IMG/VR virus record: IMGVR_UViG_3300005573_000164
Coordinates: 1-40,166 of that record
Source: a virus
Lineage: Duplodnaviria > Caudoviricetes
DNA: 40,166 bases
Reading direction: 5' to 3' (one strand)
Position 1 is the first letter of the stretch, and each line of letters opens with the position of its first letter. The notes under the pieces were generated by a model, which saw only the letters and a list, made by a program, of their open reading frames with translations, did no database searches and had not been told where the DNA came from. This document shows positions 9,686 through 26,884 of the stretch, one piece after another. Made by a program: the position numbers and the translations under genes.

Positions 9686-10729
9686 TCAAGAAGGATGTTC
9701 CGAAAGCTGTTTGATCTCTGTTTCGAGTTCATGAATGCGCGTCTGATTGTGCATGAGCTTGGCCAAGTCGAGTTTCGCAGTTAAGATTTCCAACTTGGTA
9801 GGTGGTTTCGATGGAGGCGACGCCGGGTGTTGTGCCGCTTTTTTCTCCGCTGGTCGGTTGGGACGGTAGTTCCCGTTCCGAATCGCCTTGGCCAGAAAAT
9901 CTGTGAACTTTGCCGGGGCAAACAGCGTCCGGGCATTGAAGTTCTCCCGCCAAAGTTTGTTGTCTGCGCCGAGCTTCCAAACGTAGTCCACCACGCCGAG
10001 ACAGGCGGACTCCGCCTCGGCCAGGGAATAGGGCGGGCTGGCGTCTTGTAGCACCGCCAGCGCATCGCAAACGCACAGCACCTGTTCGGGTGTCACCGGC
10101 AAGGAAACGCCCTGCTTGGTCATCATAGCGCGCAGGACGCGGTTAGCCGCGTCCGCGGTCGGTTTGTGAATCCGCAGCAGTTCCGGTACGGGCTGTTTTG
10201 GACGCGGCGTGACCAGTTCCGGGTCCTCCCCCACACCCCCTCCTATAGAACCAGAACCATTAACCAGAGCATTGCTAATTTCTTTTGTATGATTTTGCCA
10301 TCGCTTTGCTGCTCCCTTCCTGCCAACCTCGGCGCGTATCTTACTGGTATGCAGCTCTCTAGATAGACGACGGCAGATCAGGGTTAGCGTTGAGTTTGCC
10401 ATATCGTTTGCCATCCAGTCGGCTTCTGGCAAATTTTTTCTTGCCATTTCCTCGCGCCATTCCAAAATCGGTTTGCCGTCCAACAAGACAATCGCCGTGT
10501 TGGTTTCGGCCAAGTCGAAAGCGGCCTGAACGATCTCGATGGATGACGCCCGAAGCAGATGCGTCAGGCGTTCAAGCTTGCCACAGATGCGGTCGGTACC
10601 GGCGGTCAGCATCCGGCCATAGGCATCATGCCAGATGCCGCGAGTGGCCGGCCGGCATTGCGCCACCGCTTCATCCTTAAACCAGTCACCCCAATTATAT
10701 TTTGTCCAATGCTCTTTGCGTCGGTTCAT
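9686..10729 (-). CDS. Phage replication initiator (DUF1376/YdaU-like N-terminus, conserved phage C-terminal domain)
   Basis: N-terminal WTKYNWGDWF...RGIWHD; C-terminal WRENFNARTLFAPAKFTDFL resembles Phg_2220_C; low-complexity linker between them. Confidence 0.7.
   Translation of the reverse strand: MNRRKEHWTKYNWGDWFKDEAVAQCRPATRGIWHDAYGRMLTAGTDRICGKLERLTHLLRASSIEIVQAAFDLAETNTAIVLLDGKPILEWREEMARKNLPEADWMANDMANSTLTLICRRLSRELHTSKIRAEVGRKGAAKRWQNHTKEISNALVNGSGSIGGGVGEDPELVTPRPKQPVPELLRIHKPTADAANRVLRAMMTKQGVSLPVTPEQVLCVCDALAVLQDASPPYSLAEAESACLGVVDYVWKLGADNKLWRENFNARTLFAPAKFTDFLAKAIRNGNYRPNRPAEKKAAQHPASPPSKPPTKLEILTAKLDLAKLMHNQTRIHELETEIKQLSEHPS
10270..10480. promoter_or_regulatory. Candidate origin: TTGCCAT iteron-like repeats inside the initiator gene
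   Basis: TTGCCAT-like copies near 10295, 10396, 10408, 10441 and 10472, plus an inverted copy near 10427; the lambda ori likewise lies within O. Confidence 0.4.
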
Positions 10730-11151
10730 GCTGCCTGTTCTCCTTGGTCGCCCTTGTGTCGGAAATTCCGCACCGCAATCAGTTTCTCAGTCATCCGTTT
10801 GATCTGCGAATCCTGTTGGCGGTCCCAGTGGGTGATTTCCTCGATGCTGGCCGCTTCCGTCGCGCAATAGCCTTGCGCTTTCAACCCGATCACCCGCCAG
10901 CCCAATTCCTCCACCGCCGCCGTCACCCTCCGCCGGGTGGACTCGTTGAACTCGCCCCAACCGAGCGCCGCCACCAATTCCCGAGCCTTCGTCCACCGCT
11001 GCCCGACCGCCGCGAACTGCCGCAACGTCCGCAACACGTCCCGGCCATCGGCCTCCACGTCATGCTGCCGGGCCGGCACCGTCGTGACCGCCCGCCGCTG
11101 ACGAAACAACGGTAACTCGCTTGCCGGGGCAATGGTCATTTTGTCATTCAT
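10726..11151 (-). CDS. Hypothetical protein (possible winged helix)
   Basis: 141 aa, coupled by ATGA overlaps to both neighbours. Confidence 0.6.
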   Translation of the reverse strand: MNDKMTIAPASELPLFRQRRAVTTVPARQHDVEADGRDVLRTLRQFAAVGQRWTKARELVAALGWGEFNESTRRRVTAAVEELGWRVIGLKAQGYCATEAASIEEITHWDRQQDSQIKRMTEKLIAVRNFRHKGDQGEQAA

Positions 11152-11459
11152 GGGAGACCCTCCAAAAAGTCTATCACGTCAGTCACGCCACGAGCCACGA
11201 TGTAGTTGCCAAACACCCGCTCGACCTCCTGCCGAAACGCCAACTGCGCCGGCCGCAGCTTGTCTTTGCCGGCCTTGACCTCGATCAGGATGTACCGTTG
11301 GCCCTTCACGGCAACCAAATCCGGCGCACCTGGCGAACCGGTCCGGTAGAAGTCGCCTTTGCTGTTGCGGGCGGCAGTGCTGCCGACCTTGAACGTCATC
11401 CACCCGTCAGTCGCCAGCACTTCCCGGATAGCCTTCGTGAGCGATTGGGCCGGCGTCAT
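11148..11459 (-). CDS. VRR-NUC / PD-(D/E)XK nuclease
   Basis: GAPDL...LIEVKAGKDKLRPAQ motif; ATG at 11459. Confidence 0.85.
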   Translation of the reverse strand: MTPAQSLTKAIREVLATDGWMTFKVGSTAARNSKGDFYRTGSPGAPDLVAVKGQRYILIEVKAGKDKLRPAQLAFRQEVERVFGNYIVARGVTDVIDFLEGLP

Positions 11460-11719
11460 AGCAGCTCTCCCGTTTCTGGAACACGGATGGGACGACGCGA
11501 GGGCGCGAAGCTCGACCAGTCGGGTTTCCCGTTGCAGAATCGGATCATGCCCGCGGTGACGGATTTCCATTTCGTGCCGCGCAAGCTCGACAGGTCAGTC
11601 GCCAGGACGCGGGCGATGCCGCCCCGCTCGGCGATGGCCATGACAGCGTTGCTGCCCACCGGTAACTCTACCGACCGTCCCGCCTCCAACGCCTGCAAGA
11701 CCGCCGCTTTGGATTCCAT
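11456..11719 (-). CDS. Hypothetical protein
   Basis: MESKAAVL... start with an AAGGAG RBS; coupled to the nuclease gene. Confidence 0.55.
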   Translation of the reverse strand: MESKAAVLQALEAGRSVELPVGSNAVMAIAERGGIARVLATDLSSLRGTKWKSVTAGMIRFCNGKPDWSSFAPSRRPIRVPETGELL

Positions 11720-11721
11720 GC

Positions 11722-11925
11722 TCAAGGCTGCTCCTTTTTTGTAACCGGTGGCCGGCAGATGCTCAAATTCTGAATTGGAAAACCTTTGGACGGCTTGAAA
11801 GGCCCTATCCCCAACACTCGCCGGCAATGAACAATGGCGTCATAATCTCCTTCAATGTAGGCATTGTTCAAGACCTGCAATGGATTCATCATGTCCAAGT
11901 CGGGATTGTGATGGGCGTCGCTCAT
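11722..11925 (-). CDS. Hypothetical protein
   Basis: 67 aa with a GAGGT RBS, in the operon. Confidence 0.45.
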   Translation of the reverse strand: MSDAHHNPDLDMMNPLQVLNNAYIEGDYDAIVHCRRVLGIGPFKPSKGFPIQNLSICRPPVTKKEQP

Positions 11926-11983
11926 GCCGCCACCTCAGGGCTTCGGTTCGTTAGAAGTGTAATCGCTTGGGTTGTATTCATGT

Positions 11984-12205
11984 TCACCGGACAGGTGTTG
12001 TTGAATGATTGTTCGACACGCGGACATGCTGGCCTCGCGCGCCGTAGTATTCCATCACCGAGTCGGGAGTCGGGAAGCATCCCGACACCGGGCAGAGCCG
12101 ACGTTGTTTGAAGGCGCGCTGTATGGCCTTCACCTTTTTTTGGTCGGGCAGTGCATCTACGATGGCCGCTCCCAATGGTGTGATTGTGAAGCTCTTGTCT
12201 TTCAT
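11984..12205 (-). CDS. Cassette 1 hypothetical protein
   Basis: 73 aa with an AAGGAG RBS; lies mainly between core GTTCGAC (12011) and inverse core GTCGAAC (12224) and ends past the core. Confidence 0.65.
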   Translation of the reverse strand: MKDKSFTITPLGAAIVDALPDQKKVKAIQRAFKQRRLCPVSGCFPTPDSVMEYYGARGQHVRVSNNHSTTPVR

Positions 12206-12918
12206 GGTTTCTCCTTCTTCGGTGTCGAACCCGGCGTTTCAGCCAACCTCGTCAGACTCGGCGGCTGAACTTTGTCGTTGGCCGCATGGCGCGAGTCCAA
12301 GGTTACTTGTCCGCCGCGCAGGTCCACGAACGCTCCTTTGATTCGCAGGTTCTCGATGGCGTCCCGTATCGCATTCGCATTGTCATCGTCCCACGCCACG
12401 AGCATGGACGGTGCGCCAGCCGTCCCGCCTTTCGTGCCGTTCACATGGTAGAAGCTCAGTCTCCCTTTGAGGAAGCATACCGCTGTCGCACGCGGCCATA
12501 TGTAGGTAAAGAATTGTTGGGTTTCGGTGCGCGCGAAGATGAGGGCGGTGCAGTTCTTGTGTTCGGCGCACCGGCGCATCCACTCTCCCGTCTTTGGGCC
12601 GTAGGGCGGGTTGCACCACACGCGCCCGCGCCATTCTTTGAGCAGGCCGTTGTCCCTGATTGTGTAGTGTTGTTTCGCAGTCGGCCACGGGCGGTTTATC
12701 GGGGCGCATGGGTCTAGGTCGAAGTCGCCCAGTGCGCGGAAGATTTCTGGCGGGGTGAGCCATTCTTCTTTGCCGTTTTCGAGGTCGCGGTCGTGCGCGA
12801 ATCCGATGCGCTTTTCTTCTGGCATTACCGGAGCGGCCAACAAATCGCTGCACGCAACGGCTTGCGCCGCCGCGTTCCGCTGGTCAGGGGCTTCGGTGAG
12901 AGCCATTTGTTGTGTCAT
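12202..12918 (-). CDS. DNA N6-adenine methyltransferase (phage Dam-type), cassette 2
   Basis: EWLTP, FDLDPCA, WCNPPYG and RTET motifs; ATG at 12918 with an AAGGAG RBS inside attC C. Confidence 0.88.
   Translation of the reverse strand: MTQQMALTEAPDQRNAAAQAVACSDLLAAPVMPEEKRIGFAHDRDLENGKEEWLTPPEIFRALGDFDLDPCAPINRPWPTAKQHYTIRDNGLLKEWRGRVWCNPPYGPKTGEWMRRCAEHKNCTALIFARTETQQFFTYIWPRATAVCFLKGRLSFYHVNGTKGGTAGAPSMLVAWDDDNANAIRDAIENLRIKGAFVDLRGGQVTLDSRHAANDKVQPPSLTRLAETPGSTPKKEKP
12224..12283 (+). mobile_element. attC site B (60 bp)
   Basis: GTCGAAC CCGGC GTTTCAGC ... GCTGAAC TTTGTC GTTGGCC; extra base in L''. Confidence 0.9.
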
Positions 12919-12960
12919 ACGTTTTCTCCTTTTCCGCCGTGCGTGAGCTTGGCGTTCCCT
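12835..12960 (+). mobile_element. attC site C (126 bp)
   Basis: GGCCAAC AAATC GCTGCACG CAACGGC ... GCCGTG CGTGAGC TTGGC GTTCCCT; two extrahelical bases on the left arm. Confidence 0.9.
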
Positions 12961-12964
12961 GGAT

Positions 12965-13612
12965 TCATCGCCGTTCCTCCGGTTGCACGTAGGGCAGTCC
13001 GACGAAGGCGAAGACTTCGGCCTCTGATTCCATCGCTCGCGTCTCGCCGGCGCGCGAGAACCCAGCGCCGTATGGATTCCACTTCCATCCACGAGCTTGA
13101 GCAGCCATACAGATTCGCATGTTGCTGGCCGCCGGGCCGGTTCGGCAGACGAGATAGTTCCACCAGTTCTCCGTCGTAGCCGCGAACAAGTCCACTGGAA
13201 TGCCGCTGGCGCGGTGGCGCATCAGCTTGTTTTTCGGCCCATACATTTCCGACCCGTTCGCGTTCTTGCGGCGTTCGAGTACGCCAGACTTTTCGAGCGA
13301 GGCGATTGTTTCGTCCGCTAGATTTACCGTGAGGCTGGCGAACATATCGGCGGGGTCTTGCCGCACTTCGGTTTTGCCGATGTAGAGGATTTCCACGTCG
13401 CCAACGGTCGGCTCGCGGCGGCGCAGCGAGCCAGCGACGATGAGGCGTTCACACACCGGCTTGAGTGCGGCGCAGAGTTCGGCGGCGACCTTCATCCCGA
13501 CAGCATTCGGGAAGCGCGGCTTCCCGCCAACCGGGGAACAATGCGCTGCTGCCAATGACTGCCCGCGTTGGGCATTATTGGCAGAACCTACGTTGTTGGC
13601 GCGGGTATTCAT
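12965..13612 (-). CDS. polX: Minimal X-family DNA polymerase / nucleotidyltransferase (palm+thumb only), cassette 3
   Basis: AGSLRR..TVGDVEIL, IPVDLF, RTGP..SN and SEAEVFAFVGLPYVQPEER motifs of PolX; no lyase, HhH or PHP domain. Confidence 0.8.
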   Translation of the reverse strand: MNTRANNVGSANNAQRGQSLAAAHCSPVGGKPRFPNAVGMKVAAELCAALKPVCERLIVAGSLRRREPTVGDVEILYIGKTEVRQDPADMFASLTVNLADETIASLEKSGVLERRKNANGSEMYGPKNKLMRHRASGIPVDLFAATTENWWNYLVCRTGPAASNMRICMAAQARGWKWNPYGAGFSRAGETRAMESEAEVFAFVGLPYVQPEERR

Positions 13613-13632
13613 GGCGGAGCTAATCGTTCTGC
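13533..13632 (+). mobile_element. attC site D (100 bp)
   Basis: GGGGAAC AATGC GCTGCTGC CAATG ... CATG GCGGAGC TAATC GTTCTGC. Confidence 0.85.
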
Positions 13633-13633
13633 G

Positions 13634-14017
13634 TCATTTGAGGGTTGCGTTCCATCTCCAGCCTGTGTGTTTCCCGAGTGCTATATCCACGGTTACAGTG
13701 TCGCCTTTATTCAAGCTCGCCCACCGCTCTGCGCTCGTGCCGACCGCGATGACTTCGTTGCCTATATCTACGATCACCGTCCACTTCTCAGGCTCGCTAC
13801 TTGTTATCGTTACAACGCCGGCTTTTCCTCCGCTGCCCACAGCTACGCCGGTGCCTGTTTGGGTGCTACTTGGCGTGTAGACCTTCTCTACGACTTTGCC
13901 GGCGTGTTCTTCGTGTCGGAAGCTGCACGAGACGCAGAATAATACGCCGCACGCAATGGCTGCAGCCGTTGCGATTCGTCGGCGTGCCGTGCCGGTGGAG
14001 GTCGGTGATTGATTCAT
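13634..14017 (-). CDS. Small exported protein/lipoprotein, cassette 4
   Basis: Hydrophobic signal ending CVSC, then a beta-rich body; start and RBS (AAAGGAAACC ATG) are inside attC E. Confidence 0.7.
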   Translation of the reverse strand: MNQSPTSTGTARRRIATAAAIACGVLFCVSCSFRHEEHAGKVVEKVYTPSSTQTGTGVAVGSGGKAGVVTITSSEPEKWTVIVDIGNEVIAVGTSAERWASLNKGDTVTVDIALGKHTGWRWNATLK

Positions 14018-14062
14018 GGTTTCCTTTCGATGCTGCCGCCGTGCATGATCTTTTAGTTAGCC
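13934..14062 (+). mobile_element. attC site E (129 bp, R'' AAC>AAT)
   Basis: GCAGAAT AATAC GCCGCACG CAATGGCTGCAGC ... GCTGCCGCCGTG CATGATC TTTTA GTTAGCC; GACGCAGAAT complements the upstream core GTTCTGCGTC. Confidence 0.75.
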
Positions 14063-14295
14063 GCAGAGCCGGTCAGCCACACGGCACGCCCTACGAGTTC
14101 CATTTCTTCCCACGTTGCCCGGTAGTAGGCTTGTCCGCCCATCTTGCCGTCAGCACCGAGAGCTTGGACGTAGCCTTGTGCGCCCCACGACTTCGGTTCG
14201 CTCACCGTCATCATGCACGCACCGAGCATCGGGTTCTTGCACTTCTCCGGGTTGAGTTGCACGACCATTCCGGCTTCGAGTTCTGTCTTTTGCAT
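14053..14295 (-). CDS. Cassette 5 hypothetical (SH3-like small beta) protein
   Basis: 80 aa with an AAAGGA RBS; ends AAN* at the R' of attC E. Confidence 0.7.
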   Translation of the reverse strand: MQKTELEAGMVVQLNPEKCKNPMLGACMMTVSEPKSWGAQGYVQALGADGKMGGQAYYRATWEEMELVGRAVWLTGSAAN

Positions 14296-14317
14296 TTGTT
14301 CCTTTCAGTTATTCGGC

Positions 14318-14378
14318 GGCCAACAATTCGGTTCAGCCAACTCGCGTAGGACGCTCGCGGCTGACCTCCCCGTTTGGA
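14318..14378 (+). mobile_element. attC site F (61 bp)
   Basis: GGCCAAC AATTC GGTTCAGC ... GCTGACC TCCCC GTTTGGA. Confidence 0.88.
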
Positions 14379-14596
14379 CAAATCTCAAAGTTTGCATCAG
14401 CAAAGTCTCCATTGCAGTCCCACACCATTTTCCCGTCTTTGTACAGATAGGCCCACCTGTTTCTTCCAACCCCTTTTATCCGCAGTTCGTAGGGCGCATA
14501 GTGCGGCGAGATGTAGGCTAGTGCTATGCCGATTGGCCGAACCATGCGCCGAAGCGAACGGCGGGATTTCTTGGCCGGTTGATTGTCAGTGGGCAT
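14333..14596 (-). CDS. Cassette 6 hypothetical protein
   Basis: 87 aa; starts in the attC G loop (GGAGG RBS) and stops in L'' of attC F. Confidence 0.65.
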   Translation of the reverse strand: MPTDNQPAKKSRRSLRRMVRPIGIALAYISPHYAPYELRIKGVGRNRWAYLYKDGKMVWDCNGDFADANFEICPNGEVSRERPTRVG

Positions 14597-14643
14597 TTGA
14601 GCCTCCGTGGTTGTTTGCGACGGCGCTTGGCTTACCGTTGGGC
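14536..14643 (+). mobile_element. attC site G (108 bp)
   Basis: GCCGAAC CATGC GCCGAAGC ... GCTTGGC TTACC GTTGGGC. Confidence 0.8.
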
Positions 14644-14930
14644 GTGATTGTCACGCGCACTGGTTGGGGTTGTGCCAGCCGTGAGGCTGTGCTATAGGTC
14701 TGGACACTTTTTGATGTAGCCGTCTCTCGAAGGCGTCGTGCACGCGCTAAAAGGTCTTCCCGCAGAAAAGCGAGACGCTCTTTTTCAGCTTCTGTTCGCC
14801 ACGGATCAGGCACTAAGAGAGTTGCAGTCGCTTCCAGGTGGGCCGCCACCGCGAGAGTGATGAGTCGTTCTGTTTCATAATGAGATTGCTTTATGATTTT
14901 TCTCGTTGCCGTGCCATTGGGAGTCTTCAT
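14586..14930 (-). CDS. Cassette 7 hypothetical (chimeric) protein
   Basis: 114 aa with a strong AGGAGG RBS; its 3' part derives from a frameshifted copy of the 15474-15536 sequence. Confidence 0.5.
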   Translation of the reverse strand: MKTPNGTATRKIIKQSHYETERLITLAVAAHLEATATLLVPDPWRTEAEKERLAFLREDLLARARRLRETATSKSVQTYSTASRLAQPQPVRVTITPNGKPSAVANNHGGSNAH

Positions 14931-15141
14931 TGCTTATATCCTCCTACGCGAGATTTGCCGACTGGTTGGTGGAGTCGCTGCTTTGCTCGCATATCTTTTT
15001 GTGATCGGGCTTGCCATCACGCTTGTGGTGGTCTTGGCCGGTCTCGTCTGGCAGTTTATTGTTTGGGTGTTTCCGTATGTCCTCGGCGGCGCTGCCGTCA
15101 TCGCTATTATTGCTTTCATCGTAAAGGCGGCTCGCAGGTGA
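14893..15141 (+). CDS. Small multi-TM membrane protein in conventional (sense) cassette orientation
   Basis: 82 aa, almost entirely hydrophobic; its stop codon lies 6 nt before R'' of attC H. Confidence 0.5.
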   Translation: MIFLVAVPLGVFIAYILLREICRLVGGVAALLAYLFVIGLAITLVVVLAGLVWQFIVWVFPYVLGGAAVIAIIAFIVKAARR

Positions 15142-15759
15142 TACCGCGCCCATCAATTCGGGACAGCGAACGGGCGAGGACGCCCGTCGCTGACCTCCGG
15201 TGTTCGGCACAAATTCCAAGCATGTTTCAGAGCCGTCATTGTATCGGTACAAGTCCGCAGTCGGCGGACACGAGGCGCGGATACAGCAGTCTGCGCACAG
15301 TGTTCCCTGTCCTCGCGGAGGTTGCGGCACGGGTGGCAGTGGCGGCGTCCATCGCTCGCAGCCGCACGATGGGCAGCTTGTCCTGTTCCAGTAGAGCACT
15401 CCGCAGCTGGCGCAGTGCCGAACCATCCGATGAGCCGAACATGAGGGAGCGAGGCGGCGCTCACTGGTGATGGGTTGGGGGTAGTGCCAGCCGTGAGGCT
15501 GTGCTTGTAGGTCTGGACACTTTTTGATGTAGCCGTATCGTTCCACTATCCACTGCCGTGCCTTCTCGCGGGTCACAAAGAGTTTCGGCAGAAAGTTTTC
15601 TCGGAGCAGGTATTGCGTGATCCCGCTGTAGTTCTCCGAGTGCCACATCGCACCCCACGCCGAACAAACTAGATGCCGCGACCCATGACCACGCGGCGCG
15701 GCTTTTTCCCCGTTTTTCGCCTTTGTAGGTGTACGTTTTTTCATATCAGACTTCCGCAT
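14944..15759 (-). CDS. Read-through fusion ORF spanning cassettes 9 and 8 (Cys-rich, zinc-ribbon-like) and attC I/H
   Basis: 271 aa; N-terminal domain, then CxxC pairs (CASC, CPSC, CADC); the tail is the antisense of the 14893-15141 ORF. Confidence 0.55.
   Translation of the reverse strand: MRKSDMKKRTPTKAKNGEKAAPRGHGSRHLVCSAWGAMWHSENYSGITQYLLRENFLPKLFVTREKARQWIVERYGYIKKCPDLQAQPHGWHYPQPITSERRLAPSCSAHRMVRHCASCGVLYWNRTSCPSCGCERWTPPLPPVPQPPRGQGTLCADCCIRASCPPTADLYRYNDGSETCLEFVPNTGGQRRASSPVRCPELMGAVSPASRLYDESNNSDDGSAAEDIRKHPNNKLPDETGQDHHKRDGKPDHKKICEQSSDSTNQSANLA
15148..15208 (+). mobile_element. attC site H (61 bp, R'' AAC>ATC)
   Basis: GCCCATC AATTC GGGACAGC GAACGGGCG AGGA CGCCCGTC GCTGACC TCCGGT GTTCGGC. 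Confidence 0.85.
15417..15475 (+). mobile_element. attC site I (59 bp, R' GTT>GAT)
   Basis: GCCGAAC CATCC GATGAGCC ... GGCGCTC ACTGGT GATGGGT; GTGCCGAAC perfectly complements the core at 15202. Confidence 0.65.
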
Positions 15760-15799
15760 CCGTCCTTCTCATAGCTGCCTTCAACACGGTATATTCGGG
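15659..15799 (+). mobile_element. Degenerate attC site J
   Basis: GCCGAAC at 15659 and ATTCGGG at 15793 (the upstream gene reads SPN through it); internal pairing is poor. Confidence 0.35.
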
Positions 15800-16002
15800 C
15801 TGCGAGACTTCACCCATTCGAGTGCGAAGTTCTCGGTAGCCGATGTGATTGCGGTCTCCCATCGGTTATTGCGGCCGCGCTGTTGCACTGTCCAGCGGTC
15901 GCCTTCTATGCGTGGCGGTTTGATTCGGTAGCCAGCTATGATGCGGCACTTCTTCTTGGTATCCGGAATGCTCGGCTCGCGGAATTTCAGCACATAGCTC
16001 AT
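15781..16002 (-). CDS. Hypothetical protein
   Basis: MSYVLKFREP..., 73 aa; ATGA overlap with the methyltransferase stop; AAGGAA RBS. Confidence 0.6.
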   Translation of the reverse strand: MSYVLKFREPSIPDTKKKCRIIAGYRIKPPRIEGDRWTVQQRGRNNRWETAITSATENFALEWVKSRSPNIPC

Positions 16003-16658
16003 TGTTTCCTTTCTTGCCAGCAGTTCGCCAGGAAGAAAGCCCGTGCGAAACCGCATGGTGTTGCAGAGCGTAGTTCTTTCGTTCGTTCGGACTTCCCGCC
16101 GAGTTTCTGCACCCAGCTTCCCTGCGAACAGACTCGTTGTGGGGTCACTTCGTTTCTCGGCAGTGCCCGGTTGAAGTGGCCGTAGAGCGCAGTTTTTTTC
16201 GTCCACGGGTCGCCATACCACCACGGCTCGAAGTACCAAGGCTTGCCCAGTTCCGGCAGCAGCTTGTGGAGTCGCCCCACCGGGTTTTCGAGTGCCCACC
16301 AGTCCGGTTTGCAGAAATCCACGCAGCGGAGCACCTGTCGCACGAGTTCCAGGCTCTTTTCCGTGCGCCCGTCCGCGTCTTTCACTTTCCAGTATTGTGC
16401 CCCGCTCGCCGCGAAGTCGGTGCAGGGTGGCGCGGCGAGTATCCCGTCCACCGTGCCGAACTTATCCATCACGTTTTCCATCAGCCAGGCTGCGCTGAGT
16501 TCCATCACGTCGATTCCGTGCTTGAGGTCTATCTGCACCACGTTCGCGCCCGCCTCCAAGTACGGAGCAGACCAGTTCCCAGTGTAGTCAAAGAGCGATA
16601 GGATGGTCCGACCGCTGCAATCCACGATTAAGGACTTGGTGATCATCGCTGGACTCAC
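15999..16658 (-). CDS. Short phage-type C5 cytosine DNA methyltransferase
   Basis: ILSLFDYTG (motif I-like), AAPPCTDF (catalytic PC) and WALENPVG (motif VI); start is GTG 16658 or ATG 16646. Confidence 0.85.
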   Translation of the reverse strand: MSPAMITKSLIVDCSGRTILSLFDYTGNWSAPYLEAGANVVQIDLKHGIDVMELSAAWLMENVMDKFGTVDGILAAPPCTDFAASGAQYWKVKDADGRTEKSLELVRQVLRCVDFCKPDWWALENPVGRLHKLLPELGKPWYFEPWWYGDPWTKKTALYGHFNRALPRNEVTPQRVCSQGSWVQKLGGKSERTKELRSATPCGFARAFFLANCWQERKQ

Positions 16659-16676
16659 TGAGCCGCAGCGTTAAAA
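16602..16676 (+). mobile_element. Degenerate terminal attC site K
   Basis: The right arm ACTGAGC CGCAGC GTTAAAA is canonical; the left arm GATGGTC CGACC GCTGCAAT has lost AAC. Confidence 0.45.
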
Positions 16677-17279
16677 TGGGATGTTGTCTTCTTCGGAGTC
16701 ACGGCTTTGCCTCGGCTCCTCTTCATGGCCAGGTTGCCACTCCTTGCAACTCGCAATCACGCTCTGCAACCCGGCGCTCAACGATTTGAAGGTGTCGTTC
16801 TCGCCGTCCTCGATCTGGTAGTGTATAGTCTTGGTCAACAACTCCGGCGGTGCTGGCGTGCCCTTCGGCAAGGGTGTAATGGCGGTGATATTAGCGTAGG
16901 TCTTGCCGTCCTTCTCTTTGTGGATCAGCGTCAGCAGGCACGCCTTCCCCAACACCTTCTCGACTTTGAACCCCTTGAGTTCTTCGGGCCTAAATCCGAT
17001 CCCCCTCCAACTTTCGAGATCGGCCCGCAAGTTGGCATTATTGGCCAGACTGTTCGTGTACCGTTGCCAAACGATGTGCGGTTTCTTCAAGCCTTCTTCC
17101 GTCTCGTAGAACTCGTCACTTAATTCCCAACCGAGCAAAATTTTCTCCTGCCATATCACCCGGTTGTTCCAGGTGGTTTGCTGCGTGCCAAGGTCAATGA
17201 CCGCGAAGCACCGGGCGCGATGCGTTCCGGCGGGTGGCGGTATGATGTTCTTGCCTGTGTCTTTGGCGGTTGTGCTCAT
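16671..17279 (-). CDS. ssDNA-binding-like / NGO0469-type phage replication protein
   Basis: PPAGTHRARCFAVIDLGTQ N-terminus, LGKACLL, and an acidic C-terminal EEDNIPF typical of SSB tails. Confidence 0.7.
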   Translation of the reverse strand: MSTTAKDTGKNIIPPPAGTHRARCFAVIDLGTQQTTWNNRVIWQEKILLGWELSDEFYETEEGLKKPHIVWQRYTNSLANNANLRADLESWRGIGFRPEELKGFKVEKVLGKACLLTLIHKEKDGKTYANITAITPLPKGTPAPPELLTKTIHYQIEDGENDTFKSLSAGLQSVIASCKEWQPGHEEEPRQSRDSEEDNIPF

Positions 17280-17297
17280 GTTTCTCCTTTTTGTTTA

Positions 17298-17492
17298 TTA
17301 TTTCCTGACGGCGACATGATCATAGGCCAAGTAAGCCTGTTGTTCCTCCGGGGCACATCTCATCGAAGGCATCCTGGAGTAGTCGCGTGGCTTCGCGCTC
17401 GCTGCACCATCCGGCTTTTGGTCGGCATTCACCTGGCCGCGCACGACGTGGCCCAGCCGCGAGCACCTCATTATGGATTCGAGTGCTTTCAT
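17298..17492 (-). CDS. Hypothetical protein
   Basis: 64 aa, ATGA-coupled to the upstream gene. Confidence 0.4.
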   Translation of the reverse strand: MKALESIMRCSRLGHVVRGQVNADQKPDGAASAKPRDYSRMPSMRCAPEEQQAYLAYDHVAVRK

Positions 17493-17872
17493 CGGCCGAC
17501 CTTCGCTTCGGCAGCGGTTGCGGTTGGCTCGGTATTACCATTTACAACCGAGAGTTTCATTTTGAGTTGATCGGGGTTGTCCCGCATCAACCGTCCATCC
17601 TTGGTTGTGTAGAGCACGCTCGCCTTGCGTTCCGGCTTTGGCAGCTTCTCATCCACGCGCACGAACGCTTTGACCGTTGCGCCTTCTTCATCCATCGGCA
17701 CAAGCTCCACGGTCACGACGACCTTCCCGCGCAGGACCGTCTCGCGGACTGCCTTCACTAATCGCTCCAACGCCAACGACGCATCAGCTGCGTGCTCGCC
17801 ATCACGCAGACTGGCGAGCAGTTGAATGAAGCTATTGTTGACCGGCTTCACTTCGGTCTGTTTCTTTCGCAT
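17489..17872 (-). CDS. Conserved phage hypothetical protein
   Basis: MRKKQTE...LERLVKAVRETVLRGKVVVTVEL...LMRDNPDQ; AAGGAG RBS; ATG at 17872. Confidence 0.7.
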   Translation of the reverse strand: MRKKQTEVKPVNNSFIQLLASLRDGEHAADASLALERLVKAVRETVLRGKVVVTVELVPMDEEGATVKAFVRVDEKLPKPERKASVLYTTKDGRLMRDNPDQLKMKLSVVNGNTEPTATAAEAKVGR

Positions 17873-18161
17873 CGGTTCTCTCCTTGTTGTGTCCCGCAAG
17901 CGCGGGATGGTTAAAATTGTTCCGCCGCTTTGCGGTTATCGCCTGTTGGCCGTCGCCGGTCAGGTATTGTGATTCCGCCCATGCAAGCACCCGGCTCTTC
18001 AAGAACCGCCGGTGCCCGCCCGGAATGCAGAAGTGCGGCAGGATGTGATGCAGCCGCCGGTAGTAGGACGTGTTGGAAATCTTGAGGAACGTGCACACGT
18101 CCTCAATCGTCCAGACTTCATCGTCCAGTGCCGTGCTTGGGGCGGGGGTGTTGTTCATCAA
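17832..18161 (-). CDS. AlpA/excisionase-like HTH DNA-binding protein
   Basis: WTIEDVCTFLKISNTSYYR...LPHFCIPGGHRRFLKSRVLAW. Confidence 0.8.
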   Translation of the reverse strand: MMNNTPAPSTALDDEVWTIEDVCTFLKISNTSYYRRLHHILPHFCIPGGHRRFLKSRVLAWAESQYLTGDGQQAITAKRRNNFNHPALAGHNKERTDAKETDRSEAGQQ

Positions 18162-18370
18162 TGCGAAATCAATTCCTCTGGTGGCGCGCCCGGTTCCTCT
18201 TCTCGGAACGGTTCAATCTTCTGGATCATCTGGGGAAACCATTGGAACATAGCCGCGAACCCCGCGCGTTCCTCCGGCGTCAGCTTCTCCCGTTCCTCCA
18301 AGTACAGTGCCAGCACTGCCGCCATCCGGTCCGCCACCGGCAACTGCATAATAATGGTGTGCTGGCTCAT
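18158..18370 (-). CDS. Hypothetical protein
   Basis: 70 aa, coupled within the operon. Confidence 0.55.
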   Translation of the reverse strand: MSQHTIIMQLPVADRMAAVLALYLEEREKLTPEERAGFAAMFQWFPQMIQKIEPFREEEPGAPPEELISH

Positions 18371-18371
18371 G

Positions 18372-18551
18372 CTAGCCCTGGCTGACTATCGTCGGCAGGC
18401 CAGTCTTCTCTCGGAGCAATTGCTCGATCAATCCACTCAACGATAAGCCATGGCGTGCGGCGAAATTCTCCGCCGCTTCACGCACAGTTGCGTTCAGCGC
18501 GATGTTGACCGGTACCTTGTCTCTTTTGCGTCGTTCTCTTGTCTTGTTCAT
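18372..18551 (-). CDS. Ribbon-helix-helix (Arc/CopG-like) regulator, not in the ORF track
   Basis: Hand translation gives MNKTRERRKRDKVPVNIALNATVREAAENFAARHGLSLSGLIEQLLREKTGLPTIVSQG (59 aa); first gene after a strong promoter. Confidence 0.75.
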   Translation of the reverse strand: MNKTRERRKRDKVPVNIALNATVREAAENFAARHGLSLSGLIEQLLREKTGLPTIVSQG

Positions 18552-18559
18552 ACATGCGC

Positions 18560-18588
18560 ATAATATGTATATACCCTGTATATGTCAA
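18560..18588 (-). promoter_or_regulatory. Sigma70 promoter of the replication/cassette operon
   Basis: TTGACA-17nt-TATTAT with the ATG 8 nt further on (leaderless-like); TGCGCA palindromes at about 18555 and 18614. Confidence 0.8.
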
Positions 18589-18639
18589 GTGCCAAAATAC
18601 TTCTTGCATGTTGTGCGCATAGTGCGATAGACAGGTCGC

Positions 18640-19210: not shown

Positions 19211-19323
19211 TGCCGGCGGCTCTATGCCGCCCTTGATTTCTTCTTCGGCTAACATTTGCTCATGCGTGGACAATAGCACAAAAGGGTTGTCGGTGTCAAG
19301 CGGTCAGGTGTTCATTGCCGCAG
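19211..19323 (-). pseudogene. Deleted duplicate of 20051-20280 (promoter plus truncated small gene)
   Basis: Near-identical to 20051-20280 but lacks 20094-20210; the ORF is reduced to MSKC*; the promoter TTGACA-18-TATTGT is retained. Confidence 0.8.
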
Positions 19324-19476
19324 CCAGGACAGATGCACTTTGTCGCCTTCGGGTTCGGTTCTTCGTGCGGGAACACGGTAGCGCCTTCCAGCCCAAGCTT
19401 GCAGGGACGAATCGATGGCTGGGACCGGCGTGGCGTAGTAGTCGGACACTTCGCCTTTCCCGCCGCGATTGGTGCT
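19296..19476 (-). pseudogene. Fused gene remnants (methyltransferase-like N-terminus plus CxxC C-terminus)
   Basis: Reads STNRGGKGEVSDYYATPVPAI (like phage MTase N-termini) and then, in another frame, ...KCICPGCGNEHLTA*; no start codon. Confidence 0.4.
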
Positions 19477-20061: not shown

Positions 20062-20220
20062 TTATGCCGCCCCTGGTTTCTTCTTCGGCCAACGATTGGC
20101 CTTCAGCAGTCTGGCAGTGCGCTTGGCGATCTCCTCCGGGCTGTAGTTCTTCTTCTGACTGCCGCCTTTGCGGCCAATCTTCACGAAATAATCATGCACA
20201 GCTTTGGGTAATTTGCTCAT
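20062..20220 (-). CDS. Small basic protein (IGRKGG motif), leaderless
   Basis: MSKLPKAVHDYFVKIGRKGG...; ATG 6 nt after the -10 box. Confidence 0.7.
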   Translation of the reverse strand: MSKLPKAVHDYFVKIGRKGGSQKKNYSPEEIAKRTARLLKANRWPKKKPGAA

Positions 20221-20226
20221 GCGTGG

Positions 20227-20256
20227 ACAATAGCACAAAAGGATTGTCGGTGTCAA
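20227..20256 (-). promoter_or_regulatory. Sigma70 promoter with extended -10
   Basis: TTGACA-18nt-TATTGT with TGn; duplicated at 19270-19299. Confidence 0.65.
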
Positions 20257-20363
20257 GCGGTCAGGTGTTCATTGCCGCAGTCATTTCGGGCGTGATGGTC
20301 GAAGTGATTGCTTTGGATTGGCATGGCAGTTCTCCTTGTGGTTTGTTTCTGGTGTAAACAACT

Positions 20364-21382: not shown

Positions 21383-21664
21383 TCATGGGCTGGCTCTCGG
21401 CGGCTGAGCTTGAGCGTTAGGAGCAATCCACTCGCCGCCGTCAGAGTGTATCCGCACCTTGCCGGTCTTGGTGATGTAGATTTGCAGTCCGCGTTTGTGT
21501 TTTGGCGTTTCAATTCCGAGTGTCACCCATCCCTTTTTCTCATCGGAGAAGTAGCGTTGCACTTTTGCCGCGCCCCACTCGAATCCATATTTGGTTTCTT
21601 GGTAGTGCATAAAGCTCCTAACAACGTGGATGCAGCGAACGCTGATCCGCTGCGTTGCCGCCAT
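21383..21664 (-). CDS. Hypothetical protein in an isolated inverted cassette
   Basis: The body lies between core GTTAGGAGC (21416) and inverse core GCTCCTAAC (21614-21622). Confidence 0.7.
   Translation of the reverse strand: MAATQRISVRCIHVVRSFMHYQETKYGFEWGAAKVQRYFSDEKKGWVTLGIETPKHKRGLQIYITKTGKVRIHSDGGEWIAPNAQAQPPRASP
21398..21422 (+). mobile_element. attC right half-site (L'-R')
   Basis: CGGCGGCTGAGCTTGAGCGTTAGGA is a canonical attC 3' end; no left arm was found. Confidence 0.7.
21616..21660 (+). mobile_element. Mini attC site (45 bp)
   Basis: TCCTAAC AACGTG GATGCAGC GAAC GCTGATC CGCTGC GTTGCCG. Confidence 0.75.
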
Positions 21665-22385
21665 TTTTGACGCCTTTACCCCTCAACATCACGGCGCCGA
21701 TGAAAGTCAGAGCAGCACGATACTCTGCTGCATACTGATCATTACCGTGCACTTCTTGCAATTTTTCCTCAAAGTATTCCATGCTTCCAAAGAAGCATCC
21801 GGTTTGCAAACGCACACCTTTGTCTGTCAAGAACGCCGCCAGGTATGAGTTTCTAGAGCCAAGCTGCCCTATGCATAACATAGCACGATTTGATCCCAAA
21901 ACCACGGAACCGTCTTTCAACTTCGCACCAGCCAACTTCGCACCAGCCAACTTCGCACCAGCCAACTTCGCACCAGCCAACTTCGCATTGGCCAAGTTTG
22001 CCCCCGCCAAGTACGCACCGGCCAAGTTTGCACGAGCCAAGTTTGCATAGGCCAAGTACGCACCGGCCAAGTTTGTATTATCCAAGTACGCACCGGCCAA
22101 GTTTGCACCGGCCAAGTTTGCATAAGCCAAGTTTGCACAGGTCAAGTTTGTACAGGTCAACTTTGCATCAGCCAAGTTTGCATCAGCCAACTTTGCACCG
22201 GCCAAGTTTGCATCAGCCAACTTTGCACCGGCCAAGTTTGCACCGGCCAAGTTTGTATCAGCCAAGTTTGCCTCAGCCAAGTTTGCACCAGCCTTAGCTG
22301 CAGCTTCGAGGCATTGTTTGATATTTTCAGCTTCAAGCGAGAACAGCACGCTTCCATCCCATCGATTTTTTATTTCAACTTTCAT
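21618..22385 (-). CDS. Pentapeptide repeat protein
   Basis: About 25 A(N/K/Y)LA(G/D/Y) repeats, with the N-terminal [11 protein letters not shown] and C-terminal GSRNSYL...GCFFG typical of phage versions. Confidence 0.92.
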
Positions 22386-23238: not shown

Positions 23239-23787
23239 TTAGTTGGCGGAATGGAACAACTGATCAATCTCAGCCGGGGTGAGAAACCGGCCAGCTTGAG
23301 CATCCCACGCCGATTTGATGCGGACGCCACTGGCGATGATTTCGCCGGCATCCCGCCAGTCTTGATAATATTCCAAGCCGCCGGTCGGCGACTGGCTGGC
23401 ATCGCCCTCGATGCCGTACCGTTTGCCGTTCCAGTTGCAGGCGGTGAACAATTTATCTGGATGCGTGAACAAGCCCCGGTGGTCTTTCTCGCCCGGCTTC
23501 ACGCCGTCGCAGTTGTACTTGAACGGCTCAACAAGTGTGCCGTCCGGCTTGATCTGGTCGGCGATGAGTTCCACCAGCTCCATCGGGTTCCGCATCCCGC
23601 CATGCTCCTGCAATACTTCCAGCGTGATACTGCACAGTTCGGCAACTTGTCCTGGCACACCGAATCGGGTCAGGACATGGTGGCAGTTCGCGTCGCCGAT
23701 GGCGCGCAAACCGTGTGGATGTTTGGCGCGGATCTCCACCAGCGCGCCGTACACGGCATCGAGTGTTTCTTGTTTTGTCATGCCCAT
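23239..23787 (-). CDS. Hypothetical protein (N-terminus shared with 25805-26134)
   Basis: The N-terminal ~66 aa are encoded by the 643-bp repeat; the C-terminus is unique. Confidence 0.6.
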   Translation of the reverse strand: MGMTKQETLDAVYGALVEIRAKHPHGLRAIGDANCHHVLTRFGVPGQVAELCSITLEVLQEHGGMRNPMELVELIADQIKPDGTLVEPFKYNCDGVKPGEKDHRGLFTHPDKLFTACNWNGKRYGIEGDASQSPTGGLEYYQDWRDAGEIIASGVRIKSAWDAQAGRFLTPAEIDQLFHSAN

Positions 23788-24230
23788 TCCTCCTTCAGCC
23801 GCATTTCCCGCCAACGCCTGGCTTGGTCACCCCGCGCATGTTTTTCCTGAAGAGCGGCCTTCCGCAACGATTCATCCGGCCACGGTTTGCGATGACAACC
23901 TTCCCGGTACAGGTTACGGCCCTTGATCAGAAGCTTCCTACCATCGCTCAACTGCAACATGAACGTATGCTGTTGCTTGCTGGCACCATAGCTATCCCGG
24001 ATGATTTTGCCTTCAATCGTTTCCATCCCGAGAAACTTCGGATTGCGCCAACTCCCGCCGAAGCGCGCCCGCTCAAAACAAACTTCATCTCCGACTACTG
24101 CATCACCGGTGCAGTCTATCGTATATTGCTCAGTCTTCATCTTTGATCTCCTTTCCTGTGGTTTGTTCCGCCGCCTTGTACTTCAACTTCTGCTTCTGCA
24201 CGCTGCAATCGGCCCGCGGTATGTCATCCC
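23588..24230. repeat. 643-bp direct repeat, copy 1 (copy 2 at 25935-26577)
   Basis: Identical by eye, offset 2347 bp; identical ORFs at 23778-24140 and 26125-26487. Confidence 0.95.
23778..24140 (-). CDS. Hypothetical protein (duplicated)
   Basis: 120 aa with an AAGGAG RBS. Confidence 0.75.
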   Translation of the reverse strand: MKTEQYTIDCTGDAVVGDEVCFERARFGGSWRNPKFLGMETIEGKIIRDSYGASKQQHTFMLQLSDGRKLLIKGRNLYREGCHRKPWPDESLRKAALQEKHARGDQARRWREMRLKEEWA

Positions 24231-25287
24231 GCGGGCCGAGATAGACCGGCTGGTACAGACTCCCGCCCTCGTAGGCATACAGGTAGCGGACTTCCACGAC
24301 CTGCCCCACTACCGGTATGCTGTGGTTGGGCGGGATGGTGACGTTTCCGATCTCGATTCCTATGTCCCCCTCCAGGTACAACCCAAGCGTCACGCTCCGT
24401 TGCTGGTTGACCTTGATGACCACCGCCGAGCAGGTAGCGTAGAACTTGCACTTCAACTGCGGCCCGCCGGAGTTGGGCCGGCCCGGCGTGTACGGCGCGA
24501 GCAAGTCCTTGAACACAATCCCCTCGGCATTCGACGCCTTCAATTCCGCGAGGAATTTACGGATGGAGTTCTCCCCGATGACCAGCGGCGTCGGATGAAT
24601 CGGCCAGCCATTCGGGTAGCCGATGAGTTTGAGCAGGGACTTGTGCCTCGTCCCGTAGGCGAGCTTGGTATAATCCACGCCGTTCCAGTTCAGCAGGTCG
24701 AAGGCGTAGTAGTCTGGCCCAATCGCCTCGCCATCGAGCACGAAGTCCCCCGGCACCGTTTTCGCGTACTCGACAATCTCCCCCGCGATCCCACACGGCT
24801 TGCCGGTCCGATTGTAGGCAGTCACGACGTCACCCCTCTTCTCCAGGATGATGCGTTTGCCATCGTACTTCTTCTGCGCGCCCCATCCCAACTTTGCCGA
24901 CCGGATGAAGCTGTCCAACTGTTCTTCCGGTAGTGGGTTCAGCAGTTGCGGCAGATACTTGGGCGGCTCGGCGGCAGCAGGCGCGCAAGGCATTTTGATG
25001 GTGGCCGCTTTCCCTTCCTGCCGGTAGCCTTTGGCTTCCTTCTCGCGGACTAGTTTCTCGAAGACCTGGACAGCCTCTGCCAGCGTGACCGGCTGGATGG
25101 TTTTGGTGGAGGTTTGCAGAGTTTTCCCCCGCCGTCCCCAAGCGCAGGTGACAATAAAGCCGTCGCCACAGGCTTCGACGCGGGCATGGTATTCCTTGTC
25201 GGATGCCCCCTCGCGGAAGAACAACGACGCACTCGGTAGTGTTTCGGTTTCTGGTTTTGTTTTCATTTCTGGCCCGTTTCGACTCAT
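24130..25287 (-). CDS. WGR-domain ATP-dependent DNA ligase
   Basis: N-terminal SDKEY...WGR...KEAKGY; ligase motifs KYDG (I), LDGE (III), AFDLL (IIIa), EGIVFK (IV) and LKCK (V); OB fold EVRYL. Confidence 0.9.
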   Translation of the reverse strand: MSRNGPEMKTKPETETLPSASLFFREGASDKEYHARVEACGDGFIVTCAWGRRGKTLQTSTKTIQPVTLAEAVQVFEKLVREKEAKGYRQEGKAATIKMPCAPAAAEPPKYLPQLLNPLPEEQLDSFIRSAKLGWGAQKKYDGKRIILEKRGDVVTAYNRTGKPCGIAGEIVEYAKTVPGDFVLDGEAIGPDYYAFDLLNWNGVDYTKLAYGTRHKSLLKLIGYPNGWPIHPTPLVIGENSIRKFLAELKASNAEGIVFKDLLAPYTPGRPNSGGPQLKCKFYATCSAVVIKVNQQRSVTLGLYLEGDIGIEIGNVTIPPNHSIPVVGQVVEVRYLYAYEGGSLYQPVYLGPRDDIPRADCSVQKQKLKYKAAEQTTGKEIKDED

Positions 25288-25804: not shown

Positions 25805-26134
25805 TTACCGGCCCTCCGCTTTGGCAATGGCGGCGCGGGCTACGGGCAGCAATGCGCCGATCTCGTCATTCCAAAAATCGGCGTGTTCCCGCGCTCTAAG
25901 CAGCCGTTCGCATCTTTGTAACGCTTCCAGCATCTTCCGCATCCCGCCATGCTCCTGCAATACTTCCAGCGTGATACTGCACAGTTCGGCAACTTGTCCT
26001 GGCACACCGAATCGGGTCAGGACATGGTGGCAGTTCGCGTCGCCGATGGCGCGCAAACCGTGTGGATGTTTGGCGCGGATCTCCACCAGCGCGCCGTACA
26101 CGGCATCGAGTGTTTCTTGTTTTGTCATGCCCAT
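25805..26134 (-). CDS. Hypothetical protein (C-terminal ARAAIAKAEG motif)
   Basis: Repeat-encoded N-terminus fused to MLEALQ...ARAAIAKAEGR, a common phage C-terminal motif. Confidence 0.6.
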   Translation of the reverse strand: MGMTKQETLDAVYGALVEIRAKHPHGLRAIGDANCHHVLTRFGVPGQVAELCSITLEVLQEHGGMRKMLEALQRCERLLRAREHADFWNDEIGALLPVARAAIAKAEGR

Positions 26135-26577
26135 TCCTCCTTCAGCCGCATTTCCCGCCAACGCCTGGCTTGGTCACCCCGCGCATGTTTTTCCTGAAGA
26201 GCGGCCTTCCGCAACGATTCATCCGGCCACGGTTTGCGATGACAACCTTCCCGGTACAGGTTACGGCCCTTGATCAGAAGCTTCCTACCATCGCTCAACT
26301 GCAACATGAACGTATGCTGTTGCTTGCTGGCACCATAGCTATCCCGGATGATTTTGCCTTCAATCGTTTCCATCCCGAGAAACTTCGGATTGCGCCAACT
26401 CCCGCCGAAGCGCGCCCGCTCAAAACAAACTTCATCTCCGACTACTGCATCACCGGTGCAGTCTATCGTATATTGCTCAGTCTTCATCTTTGATCTCCTT
26501 TCCTGTGGTTTGTTCCGCCGCCTTGTACTTCAACTTCTGCTTCTGCACGCTGCAATCGGCCCGCGGTATGTCATCCC
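25935..26577. repeat. 643-bp direct repeat, copy 2
   Basis: On - it begins with the last ~100 bp of the ligase gene, directly behind the early promoter leader. Confidence 0.95.
26125..26487 (-). CDS. Hypothetical protein (duplicate of 23778-24140)
   Basis: Identical translation. Confidence 0.75.
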   Translation of the reverse strand: MKTEQYTIDCTGDAVVGDEVCFERARFGGSWRNPKFLGMETIEGKIIRDSYGASKQQHTFMLQLSDGRKLLIKGRNLYREGCHRKPWPDESLRKAALQEKHARGDQARRWREMRLKEEWA

Positions 26578-26675: not shown

Positions 26676-26730
26676 GGGCAAAAAGCGGCTTTAAGCAATT
26701 TAAGCGATTTATGGCATATTAAATGCTGGG

Positions 26731-26884
26731 CGGCGTTCACCGGGGGCCGGCGTTCACCGGGGGCCGGCGTTCACCGGGGGCCGGCGTTCACCGGGGGCCG
26801 GCGTTCACCGGGGGCCGGCGTTCAGCGGGGGGCGGCGCGCCAGGGGCGGCGCGCCAGGGGCGGCGCGGGGGGCGGCGCGCCCCC
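26731..26884. repeat. GC-rich tandem repeats (17 bp x5 plus a variant; 14 bp x2 plus variants)
   Basis: CGGCGTTCACCGGGGGC at 26731, 26748, 26765, 26782 and 26799; CGGCGCGCCAGGGG at 26833 and 26847. Confidence 0.95.

Follow-up and report, generated by a model that had tools for sequence, protein, structure and literature searches.

The viral record IMGVR_UViG_3300005573_000164 (Duplodnaviria; Caudoviricetes), analysed over its whole length of 40,166 nt (the window), carries a 121-nt terminal repeat at its ends and, between 11,984 and 16,676, a series of phage genes alternating with hairpin sites that have the anatomy of attC, the recombination site of integron cassettes. Seven of these sites (A-G) are intact and three (H, I and J) are relics, and the genes run opposite to them. 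The array belongs to a series of minus-strand genes that follow one another between 18551 and 9686 with gaps of no more than 46 nt; one weak terminator-like match on the minus strand lies inside this run (12859-12846). At its head stands a predicted promoter, proposed earlier and recovered here from its consensus as the best of 15 matches in 9.5-27.5 kb. The genes assigned to the minus strand by the original prediction lie there, with one likely exception on the plus strand, an 82-aa open reading frame (ORF) that is likely a cassette gene of ordinary polarity. The 271-aa frame across sites G and H is likely two fused cassette genes (Table 1).

An attC site is described in PMC5027507 as an imperfect inverted repeat of 57-141 nt composed of R'' (ending in AAC), a spacer, L'', L', a spacer and R' (beginning with GTT). 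Sites A-G have this anatomy (60-129 nt, D and G with one change in AAC), and H, I and J do not. We built a covariance model, R1, from 24 sites of other contigs, with no window sequence and with the homologue of site C omitted. R1 matched A-G end to end on the plus strand (E 3.5e-12 to 6.8e-5; next match in the window E 0.23), at the coordinates of the original prediction, which had suggested this check. That prediction had counted eight full and two degenerate sites; H is not full, and a search confined to 1.75 kb still gave no R1 match for H (E 3.7), I or J. An R'' formerly assigned to J at 16602 was rejected, as a homologue in locus L230 shows R'' to be deleted. The search that matched A-G also recovered three attC sites of phage TJE1, two of which are sequences recombined by IntI1 in Table S3 of PMC9892861, and R1 also detected bacterial arrays beside host integrases (124 matches in 43 loci). 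It found no site in Polaribacter phage P12002L and thus misses AT-rich sites. An anatomy scanner, its threshold fixed after the window had been inspected, gave seven matches on the plus strand of 12001-16700 and none on the minus strand (A, B, C, E, F, G and a short form of I, with D missed), against at most 1 in 300 dinucleotide shuffles.

Position 23 of the top strand is a conserved A in each of the nine sites A-I, and the distal extrahelical base, a conserved T on the bottom strand, is present. The best pairing omits position 16 in all seven intact sites (ties resolved towards 16), which puts the extrahelical bases on the L'' arm. Positions 4-7 of R' in A-G fit the R'' of the next site at 24 of 28 bases and their own R'' at 13 of 28, with runs of up to 9-10 nt. 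This footprint, noted originally for the window, recurs over all phage intervals (204/212 for the next R'' versus 121/212 for the own). Host sites have a median length of 74 nt and phage sites of 107 nt; the short sites A, E and G resemble host-length sites. With two or more attC on one strand within 4 kb and no neighbouring intI, the array is a cluster of attC sites lacking integron integrases (CALIN) as defined in PMC4889954.

Table 1. Features of the array and its flanks, with R1 scores and with breakpoints of contigs from public runs X1, X2 and X4
Feature	Position	Strand	Remarks
19-codon ORF	11922..11981	-	ATG 30 nt from the 12011 core, the place of the intI start codon in relatives
First cassette gene, 73 aa	11984..12205	-	no family matched; crosses the 12011 core at an Asn codon
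Likely decayed attI, phage-integron type	11986..12017	+	core G|TT at 12011; R' matches R'' of site A 7/7
Dam-type adenine methyltransferase	12202..12918	-	PF05869, phrog_111; starts within attC B, reads through attC A
attC A	12224..12283 (60 nt)	+	31.5 bits; breakpoint at 12278 in X4
attC B	12835..12960 (126 nt)	+	55.7 bits; breakpoints 12954 and 12957 in X1, X2, X4
PolX-like nucleotidyltransferase	12965..13612	-	PF14791/PF14792; starts within attC C
attC C	13533..13632 (100 nt)	+	46.6 bits
127-aa gene	13634..14017	-	weak secreted-protein family match, phrog_301 E 9e-4; starts within attC D
attC D, weakened	13934..14062 (129 nt)	+	27.9 bits; R'' has AAT; L boxes pair 4/7
80-aa phage gene	14053..14295	-	phrog_19062 E 2.5e-25; ends with the Asn of D's core; stop codon in attC D
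attC E	14318..14378 (61 nt)	+	40.2 bits; breakpoint 14379 in X4
87-aa gene	14333..14596	-	start in attC F, stop in attC E
attC F	14536..14643 (108 nt)	+	47.4 bits; breakpoint 14637 in X4
~60-nt direct repeat	14666..14726 and 15478-15539		flanks 811-nt block absent from X4; joint 14661-15473
82-aa hydrophobic ORF	14893..15141	+	co-oriented with attC G, ends 7 nt before it; no family matched
271-aa open frame	14944..15759	-	from inside I through H and G; crosses G's core at Asn
attC G	15148..15208 (61 nt)	+	27.2 bits; R'' has ATC; loose ends 12954 and 15204; partner core starts G|AT in sister genotype
Site H, relic	15417..15475	+	attC left arm, right arm degenerate; R'' matches G's R' over 9 nt; no model match
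Site I, relic	15659..15799	+	attC left arm, right arm lost; F's R' matches I's R'' at 9/10; E 0.19, partial
Cytosine methyltransferase	15999..16646	-	phrog_757, PF00145; starts within relic J
Site J, relic	16602..16676	+	16 nt with R'' and spacer missing relative to the L230 homologue; no model match
Sigma-70-type promoter consensus (predicted)	18560..18588	-	11/12 matches; heads the minus-strand run

In canonical cassettes the ORF is co-oriented with attC, which lies at its 3' end; here the genes are antisense and attC lies at their 5' end. That the top strand is the plus strand of the sites, as first proposed, follows from R1, which puts the tested sites of TJE1 on the strand of the TJE1 genes (two of two intervals sense), and from integrase-bearing relatives, in which the top-strand order next to intI is attI, gene, attC. 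This order also settles which hairpin travels with which gene. Intervals in phage arrays were antisense in 51 of 53 cases (41/43 at margin 5), the Dam interval of the window being miscounted as sense because its stop was required to precede site A; by its Pfam match Dam lies on the minus strand. Without the window the count was 45/46, and with 17 of 17 antisense intervals from held-out phage loci it rose to 62/63. One sense interval belongs to L266, whose integrase is just 36% alike. Bacterial arrays next to host integrases gave 12 antisense and 74 sense intervals among 86 (84 from genomes of the phylum of G007 and two from G006), or 2/53 antisense at margin 5. Normally, as stated earlier, attC arrays are bacterial and their ORFs co-oriented with attC; phage attC clusters without integrase have already been published.

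Most genes that cross a core also keep frame with it. An in-frame start codon lies inside the gene's own attC in 29 of 52 phage cassettes. The core AAC is read as Asn in 26 of 29 core-crossing genes and in 9/9 held out (35/38 combined), and all window genes that cross a core cross it at Asn. The R'' box, where no crossover point lies, gave frames of 8/11/10.

Several cassettes occur elsewhere beside other neighbours. The PolX cassette stands behind three different sites in three replicons (the window, L001 and L101), with covariation of R'' and the four variable bases of R'. The similar stretch begins at G|TT, and the stop codon lies 11 nt after the core in the window and in L001 and at the same aligned place in L101. 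The cassette is 84% identical in L001 and 53% in L101, a contig of a Chthoniobacteraceae bin where it is the first cassette after attI beside an integrase. For the Dam cassette, a 70% identical gene with a homologous 5' attC has other neighbours in L240, a complete 39-kb phage without integrase. G001, a 73-kb phage (L001:5686-11646), also lacks an integrase and has 13 well-folding attC sites with inverted genes. We aligned contigs from the public runs X1, X2 and X4 to the array and listed 15 distinct breakpoints, a list that leaves aside eight further rows of loose ends. Six of these fall within the 8-nt cores of five sites (A, B, B, E, F and G), versus 0.2 expected (P 3e-8). In X2, attC B retains its G and continues with ATGGGC, the complement of the unusual R'' (ATC) of site G; as the G is kept and the next base changed, the crossover is placed between G and T. 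One X1 contig joins 12954 to 14725, which puts cassette G directly behind B, X4 joins F directly to the I cassette, and the left 35 nt of H run into another attC-like right arm in X1 and X2. Of the proposed exchange of phage genes by IntI and attC, the junctions at G|TT are found in natural sequences; the phage does not supply the integrase, and its array is decaying. Two candidate cassette events were rejected, the 811-nt block, whose ends lie off the cores and which is flanked by the 60-nt repeats, and a replacement of 15975-16639 in X4, whose ends are not at any core.

Exchange may extend to bacteria. L230 (G036, 390-2700) is a bacterial chromosomal integron flanked by housekeeping genes, and its first cassette is an inverted phage-type cytosine methyltransferase, 71% identical to that of the window, which starts inside its own, intact attC. 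This cassette suggests gene flow between phage and host arrays.

As originally noted, the window encodes no integrase: a six-frame family search gave no match to TIGR02249 or PF00589, and tblastn with two phage integrases had a best E of 0.31. The position 12011 is likely the remnant of an attI site. With a matrix from 13 phage attI sites it ranks 1 of 1317 GTT positions; its score is low, 3.4 bits ungapped and 8.8 with a 1-nt gap, compared with 13-30 for real sites, and its spacer is one base short. Contigs in X1 and X4 leave the window at 11912, inside the 67-aa gene beside the attI remnant, and run into other sequence, of which 30 letters are visible; a sister genotype might carry intI there.

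Relatives with an integrase do exist. Two viral records bearing PolX, both Mu-like, encode an integron-type integrase; of 8000 proteins scored, at least 464 belong to its family at E<=1e-60. A profile scan found about 20 viral loci with the integrase, most of them with attC on the opposite strand at most 2.5 kb upstream. These proteins have the features of an integron integrase: the catalytic residues of tyrosine recombinases do not vary, and the insertion specific to IntI, which two XerD rows lack, aligns with that of IntI1 and is 9 residues shorter; the best NCBIfam match is TIGR02249. In a quick tree, 18 integrase rows form one branch (SH-aLRT, the Shimodaira-Hasegawa-like approximate likelihood ratio test, 99) apart from 31 host integrases. 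Five rows labelled phage fall outside the branch, and eleven host integrases and six other rows were left out as too short. An attI adjoins intI in 14 of 16 loci (7/7 core match with the first R'') and was top-ranked in 11/11 held-out loci. intI directly follows the last cassette gene and shares its strand, with its ATG 26-40 nt from the core in 12/16 loci. The clade loci (L019-L033, L039, L099-L101, L242-L255) come from Mu-like and other phages and share the conserved attI about 30 nt before the start codon and the inverted array. Best integrase matches in annotated phage records are 34-38% identical (seven records). L225:6242-7214 (G015), a Mu-like contig with an inverted array, has an integrase on a long branch outside the main clade and possibly represents a second origin.

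Mu transposase or MuB is found in 12 of the 18 loci scanned, which points to another integration route, so that the integrase is not needed for lysogeny; the Mu A/B names follow family labels. The nearest cellular matches of the integrase are in Chthoniobacteraceae bins and in one 57-kb contig that bears a transposase and was binned with another phylum. The Chthoniobacteraceae matches make a Verrucomicrobiota host likely for the integrase clade. Such a host is also likely for the phage of the window, though less surely than for the clade. As 67 of 251 genomes of that phylum carry an integrase above the cut-off, a source of IntI in trans is plausible.

We consider it quite probable that the window holds a reversed cassette array, with seven intact and three decayed attC, that most likely arose, and is probably still being rearranged, through the action of IntI supplied from outside the phage. 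A broader proposal, which we favour with less confidence, is that phages of Verrucomicrobiota run an integron of their own. It would comprise a phage IntI clade with attI in the early operon of Mu-like phages, reversed and frame-locked cassettes, and hairpins serving as translation joints, and its gene pool would be drawn on by unrelated phages, including ones without integrase, and leak into host integrons. IntI recombines the folded bottom strand, chosen by its extrahelical bases, at R' (PMC2727003, PMC5027507). Here it would cut the folded minus strand at G|TT, and the mobile unit would consist of core, gene and attC, with attC at the 5' end of the gene. The long attC loops would hold the ribosome site and start codon of their own gene and often the stop codon of the upstream gene, allowing translational coupling through the hairpin loops. 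Because the core AAC is in frame in genes that run over it, the upstream gene would end at the same stop whichever cassette follows, and the operon would be translatable in any order. The early promoter at 18588, at the far end, would read all cassettes, so that no cassette promoter (Pc) is needed and the newest cassette is read last; in relatives the newest would sit just before intI. The recombining strand would be the non-template strand, and we can guess that transcription could help folding. The phage would have descended from, or acquired its array from, a phage with the full system, of which the attI at 12011 would be a remnant, and then lost intI. Integrases of the host or of co-resident Mu-like prophages would act in trans, and unused sites would decay.

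A number of observations speak against this picture or limit it. Nine of the 15 listed breakpoints lie outside the cores to which they had been predicted to map, and the 811-nt block and the X4 swap of 15975-16639, both off the cores, mean that other kinds of recombination also act. The aligned contigs are short and may come from other phages or host arrays and not from variants of the window phage. No attC lies near homologues of the 80-aa gene in seven of seven other viral loci, or near the PolX homologues in L002, L003 and L007. The 8.8 bits of the attI in the window are near background, the best unrelated position of G001 scoring 7.8. The sites of the window fold worse than the sites of phages with an integrase (1/7 versus 22/36 come within 1.4 kcal of the ensemble), as expected of an array in decay. 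Unconstrained folds of most window sites miss the attC hairpin and are uninformative. The first extrahelical base of the bottom strand is C in four sites, A in two and T in one, not G, which is 'usually' found there according to PMC5027507; host arrays beside ordinary IntI have G in just 6/92. R1 shares the assumptions of the authors' anatomy scanner, by which its training sites were chosen, and gene polarity was decided with a simple codon score, for which 33 annotated phage genes served as training set. The tree is a quick version with an incomplete one-clade test, and the TIGR02249 cut-off of 265 bits falls within the range of the phage integrases (238-274 bits), two of six viral records being above it and four at 238-264.

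Some of these points would also fit a fossil array, built by IntI in an ancestor and now inert, that changes through homologous recombination between attC arms or short repeats. The absence of intI, the weak attI, the three relic sites, the poorer folding and the rearrangements at 60-nt repeats and off the cores all agree with it. We nevertheless regard it as improbable, since in DNA at least 88% alike from one habitat the change of neighbour falls precisely on five cores, no preference for the G|T step would be expected of homologous exchange between arms, and the integrase-less G001 keeps its 13 well-folding sites. The location of start and stop signals in the loops could mean that the hairpins are regulatory or recombination repeats of the phage, served by an enzyme other than IntI (a Xer-like recombinase or an annealing protein), and only look like attC. 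This is very unlikely, as R1 also detects bacterial arrays of host IntI and the IntI1-tested sites of TJE1, the same site family lies directly upstream of IntI-type genes with attI, and one cassette also occurs in a chromosomal integron.

Capture of host arrays is known from Vibrio and Shewanella prophages, as reported in PMC9892861, and the host-like length of A, E and G could likewise point to a block of a bacterial chromosomal array that was captured once and landed backwards. Inversion of a block would leave the polarity of gene versus site unaffected, however, and host arrays are sense in 74/86 intervals; the cargo is phage-type, and its genes start inside hairpins. We give this origin slightly less credit still than non-IntI repeats. 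Finally, an assembly chimera at the repeated attC arms is scarcely credible. Assembly graphs do branch at the sites, no single listed contig spans the whole array, and CheckV completeness of the window is 63%; on the other hand, a 5.5-kb contig of run X3 matches 10500-13790 without a difference (attI, A, B and C), in X1 a total of 3570 nt extends over 15060-18629 and thereby over G-J, and a wrong order would remove neither the sites nor their polarity.

Several known systems come close to the array. Qi et al. 2023 (PMC9892861) report 17 phage CALINs, those of TJE1, PH101, P12002L and 14 more, as well as three complete integrons; five of six phage sites tested there were recombined with attI1 by IntI1. 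Those CALINs share with the window the integrase-less attC clusters and the methyltransferase cargo. They have 2-4 sites (Table S1), TJE1 and PH101 are presented as typical arrays and the TJE1 genes are co-oriented, whereas the window has seven intact sites, antisense genes with their start codons inside hairpins, the likely remains of an attI, and cores at which cassettes have been exchanged in nature. Divergent attC directions are noted for P12002L in PMC9892861; the passages on these sites do not describe antisense genes as a rule, and the annotation file of that paper could show reversed cases. Complete integrons, including those of Vibrio and Shewanella prophages and of Verrucomicrobiota chromosomes, have the same attC anatomy and G|TT crossover, and their intI is divergent from the attC top strand as in our relatives. 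In contrast to them, the genes here face attI and intI, expression would come from the distal phage promoter and not from Pc, the window lacks intI, and the integrase of the relatives forms a separate clade. 'Inverted integrase' integrons of Treponema and others, as presented in PMC4889954 and PMC13323075, likewise depart from the usual integron orientation; in those it is intI that is reversed with respect to attC, whereas here the geometry of intI and attC is regular and the cassette genes are flipped.

As integrase-less attC clusters of phages are already published, the surprise lies in the polarity and in the phage integrase clade, not in the presence of attC. We found no description of reversed phage cassettes or of this clade in the literature searched, which lacks most subscription journals. 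What appears new is therefore the reversed polarity together with a clade of phage-borne integron integrases that have their own attI and inverted arrays. Strand choice is said to guarantee expression from Pc (PMC2727003); the phage arrays would reverse this expression logic, with strand choice kept, the genes flipped and the array fed from the far end. Methyltransferase cassettes appear to move between phage and host arrays, and odd N- and C-terminal tails of small phage proteins would be explained as hairpin-encoded. The mosaicism of phage genomes is mostly attributed to random or homologous recombination. A reversed phage integron would be a site-specific route to it, for which both enzyme and sites can be named and a rule can be tested, namely that crossover occurs at an in-frame Asn.

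The structural genes of the window include a gpA-type terminase, a lambda-type portal, a Mu gpT-like capsid and a tape measure. The terminase has three relatives with 55-65% identity on short contigs, the 202-aa gene gave no loci, and the 67-aa gene gave one 11-residue match and nothing else. With no close relative of the backbone, loss of intI is not visible in any sister genome. Between 94 and 95% of the words of the array are present in two public runs labelled hot-spring metagenome, with no RNA run among the public runs listed as holding them, and an Rfam search of the window gave no match. blastn of the array against 50,697 annotated phages matched 70 records, and in the 20 of these that were listed the Dam gene alone was matched.

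The early region also contains a second, promoter-based kind of repeat, a 73-nt module present with 97% identity at 19254-19326 and 20211-20283; each copy contains a promoter consensus and has a stem-loop nearby (19215, 20055). Further along, a near-identical duplication occupies 23579-24174 and 25926-26521, 2347 nt apart (300 nt at 99% listed), and spans the entire DUF7699 gene. A tandem 17-nt GC-rich repeat at 26711-26863, between two divergent gene arms, is a possible origin or packaging region. Other genes of the window encode a pentapeptide-repeat protein (21618-22385), a WGR-fused ATP-dependent ligase (24130-25287) and, among the head genes, a glycosyltransferase (34112-35035).

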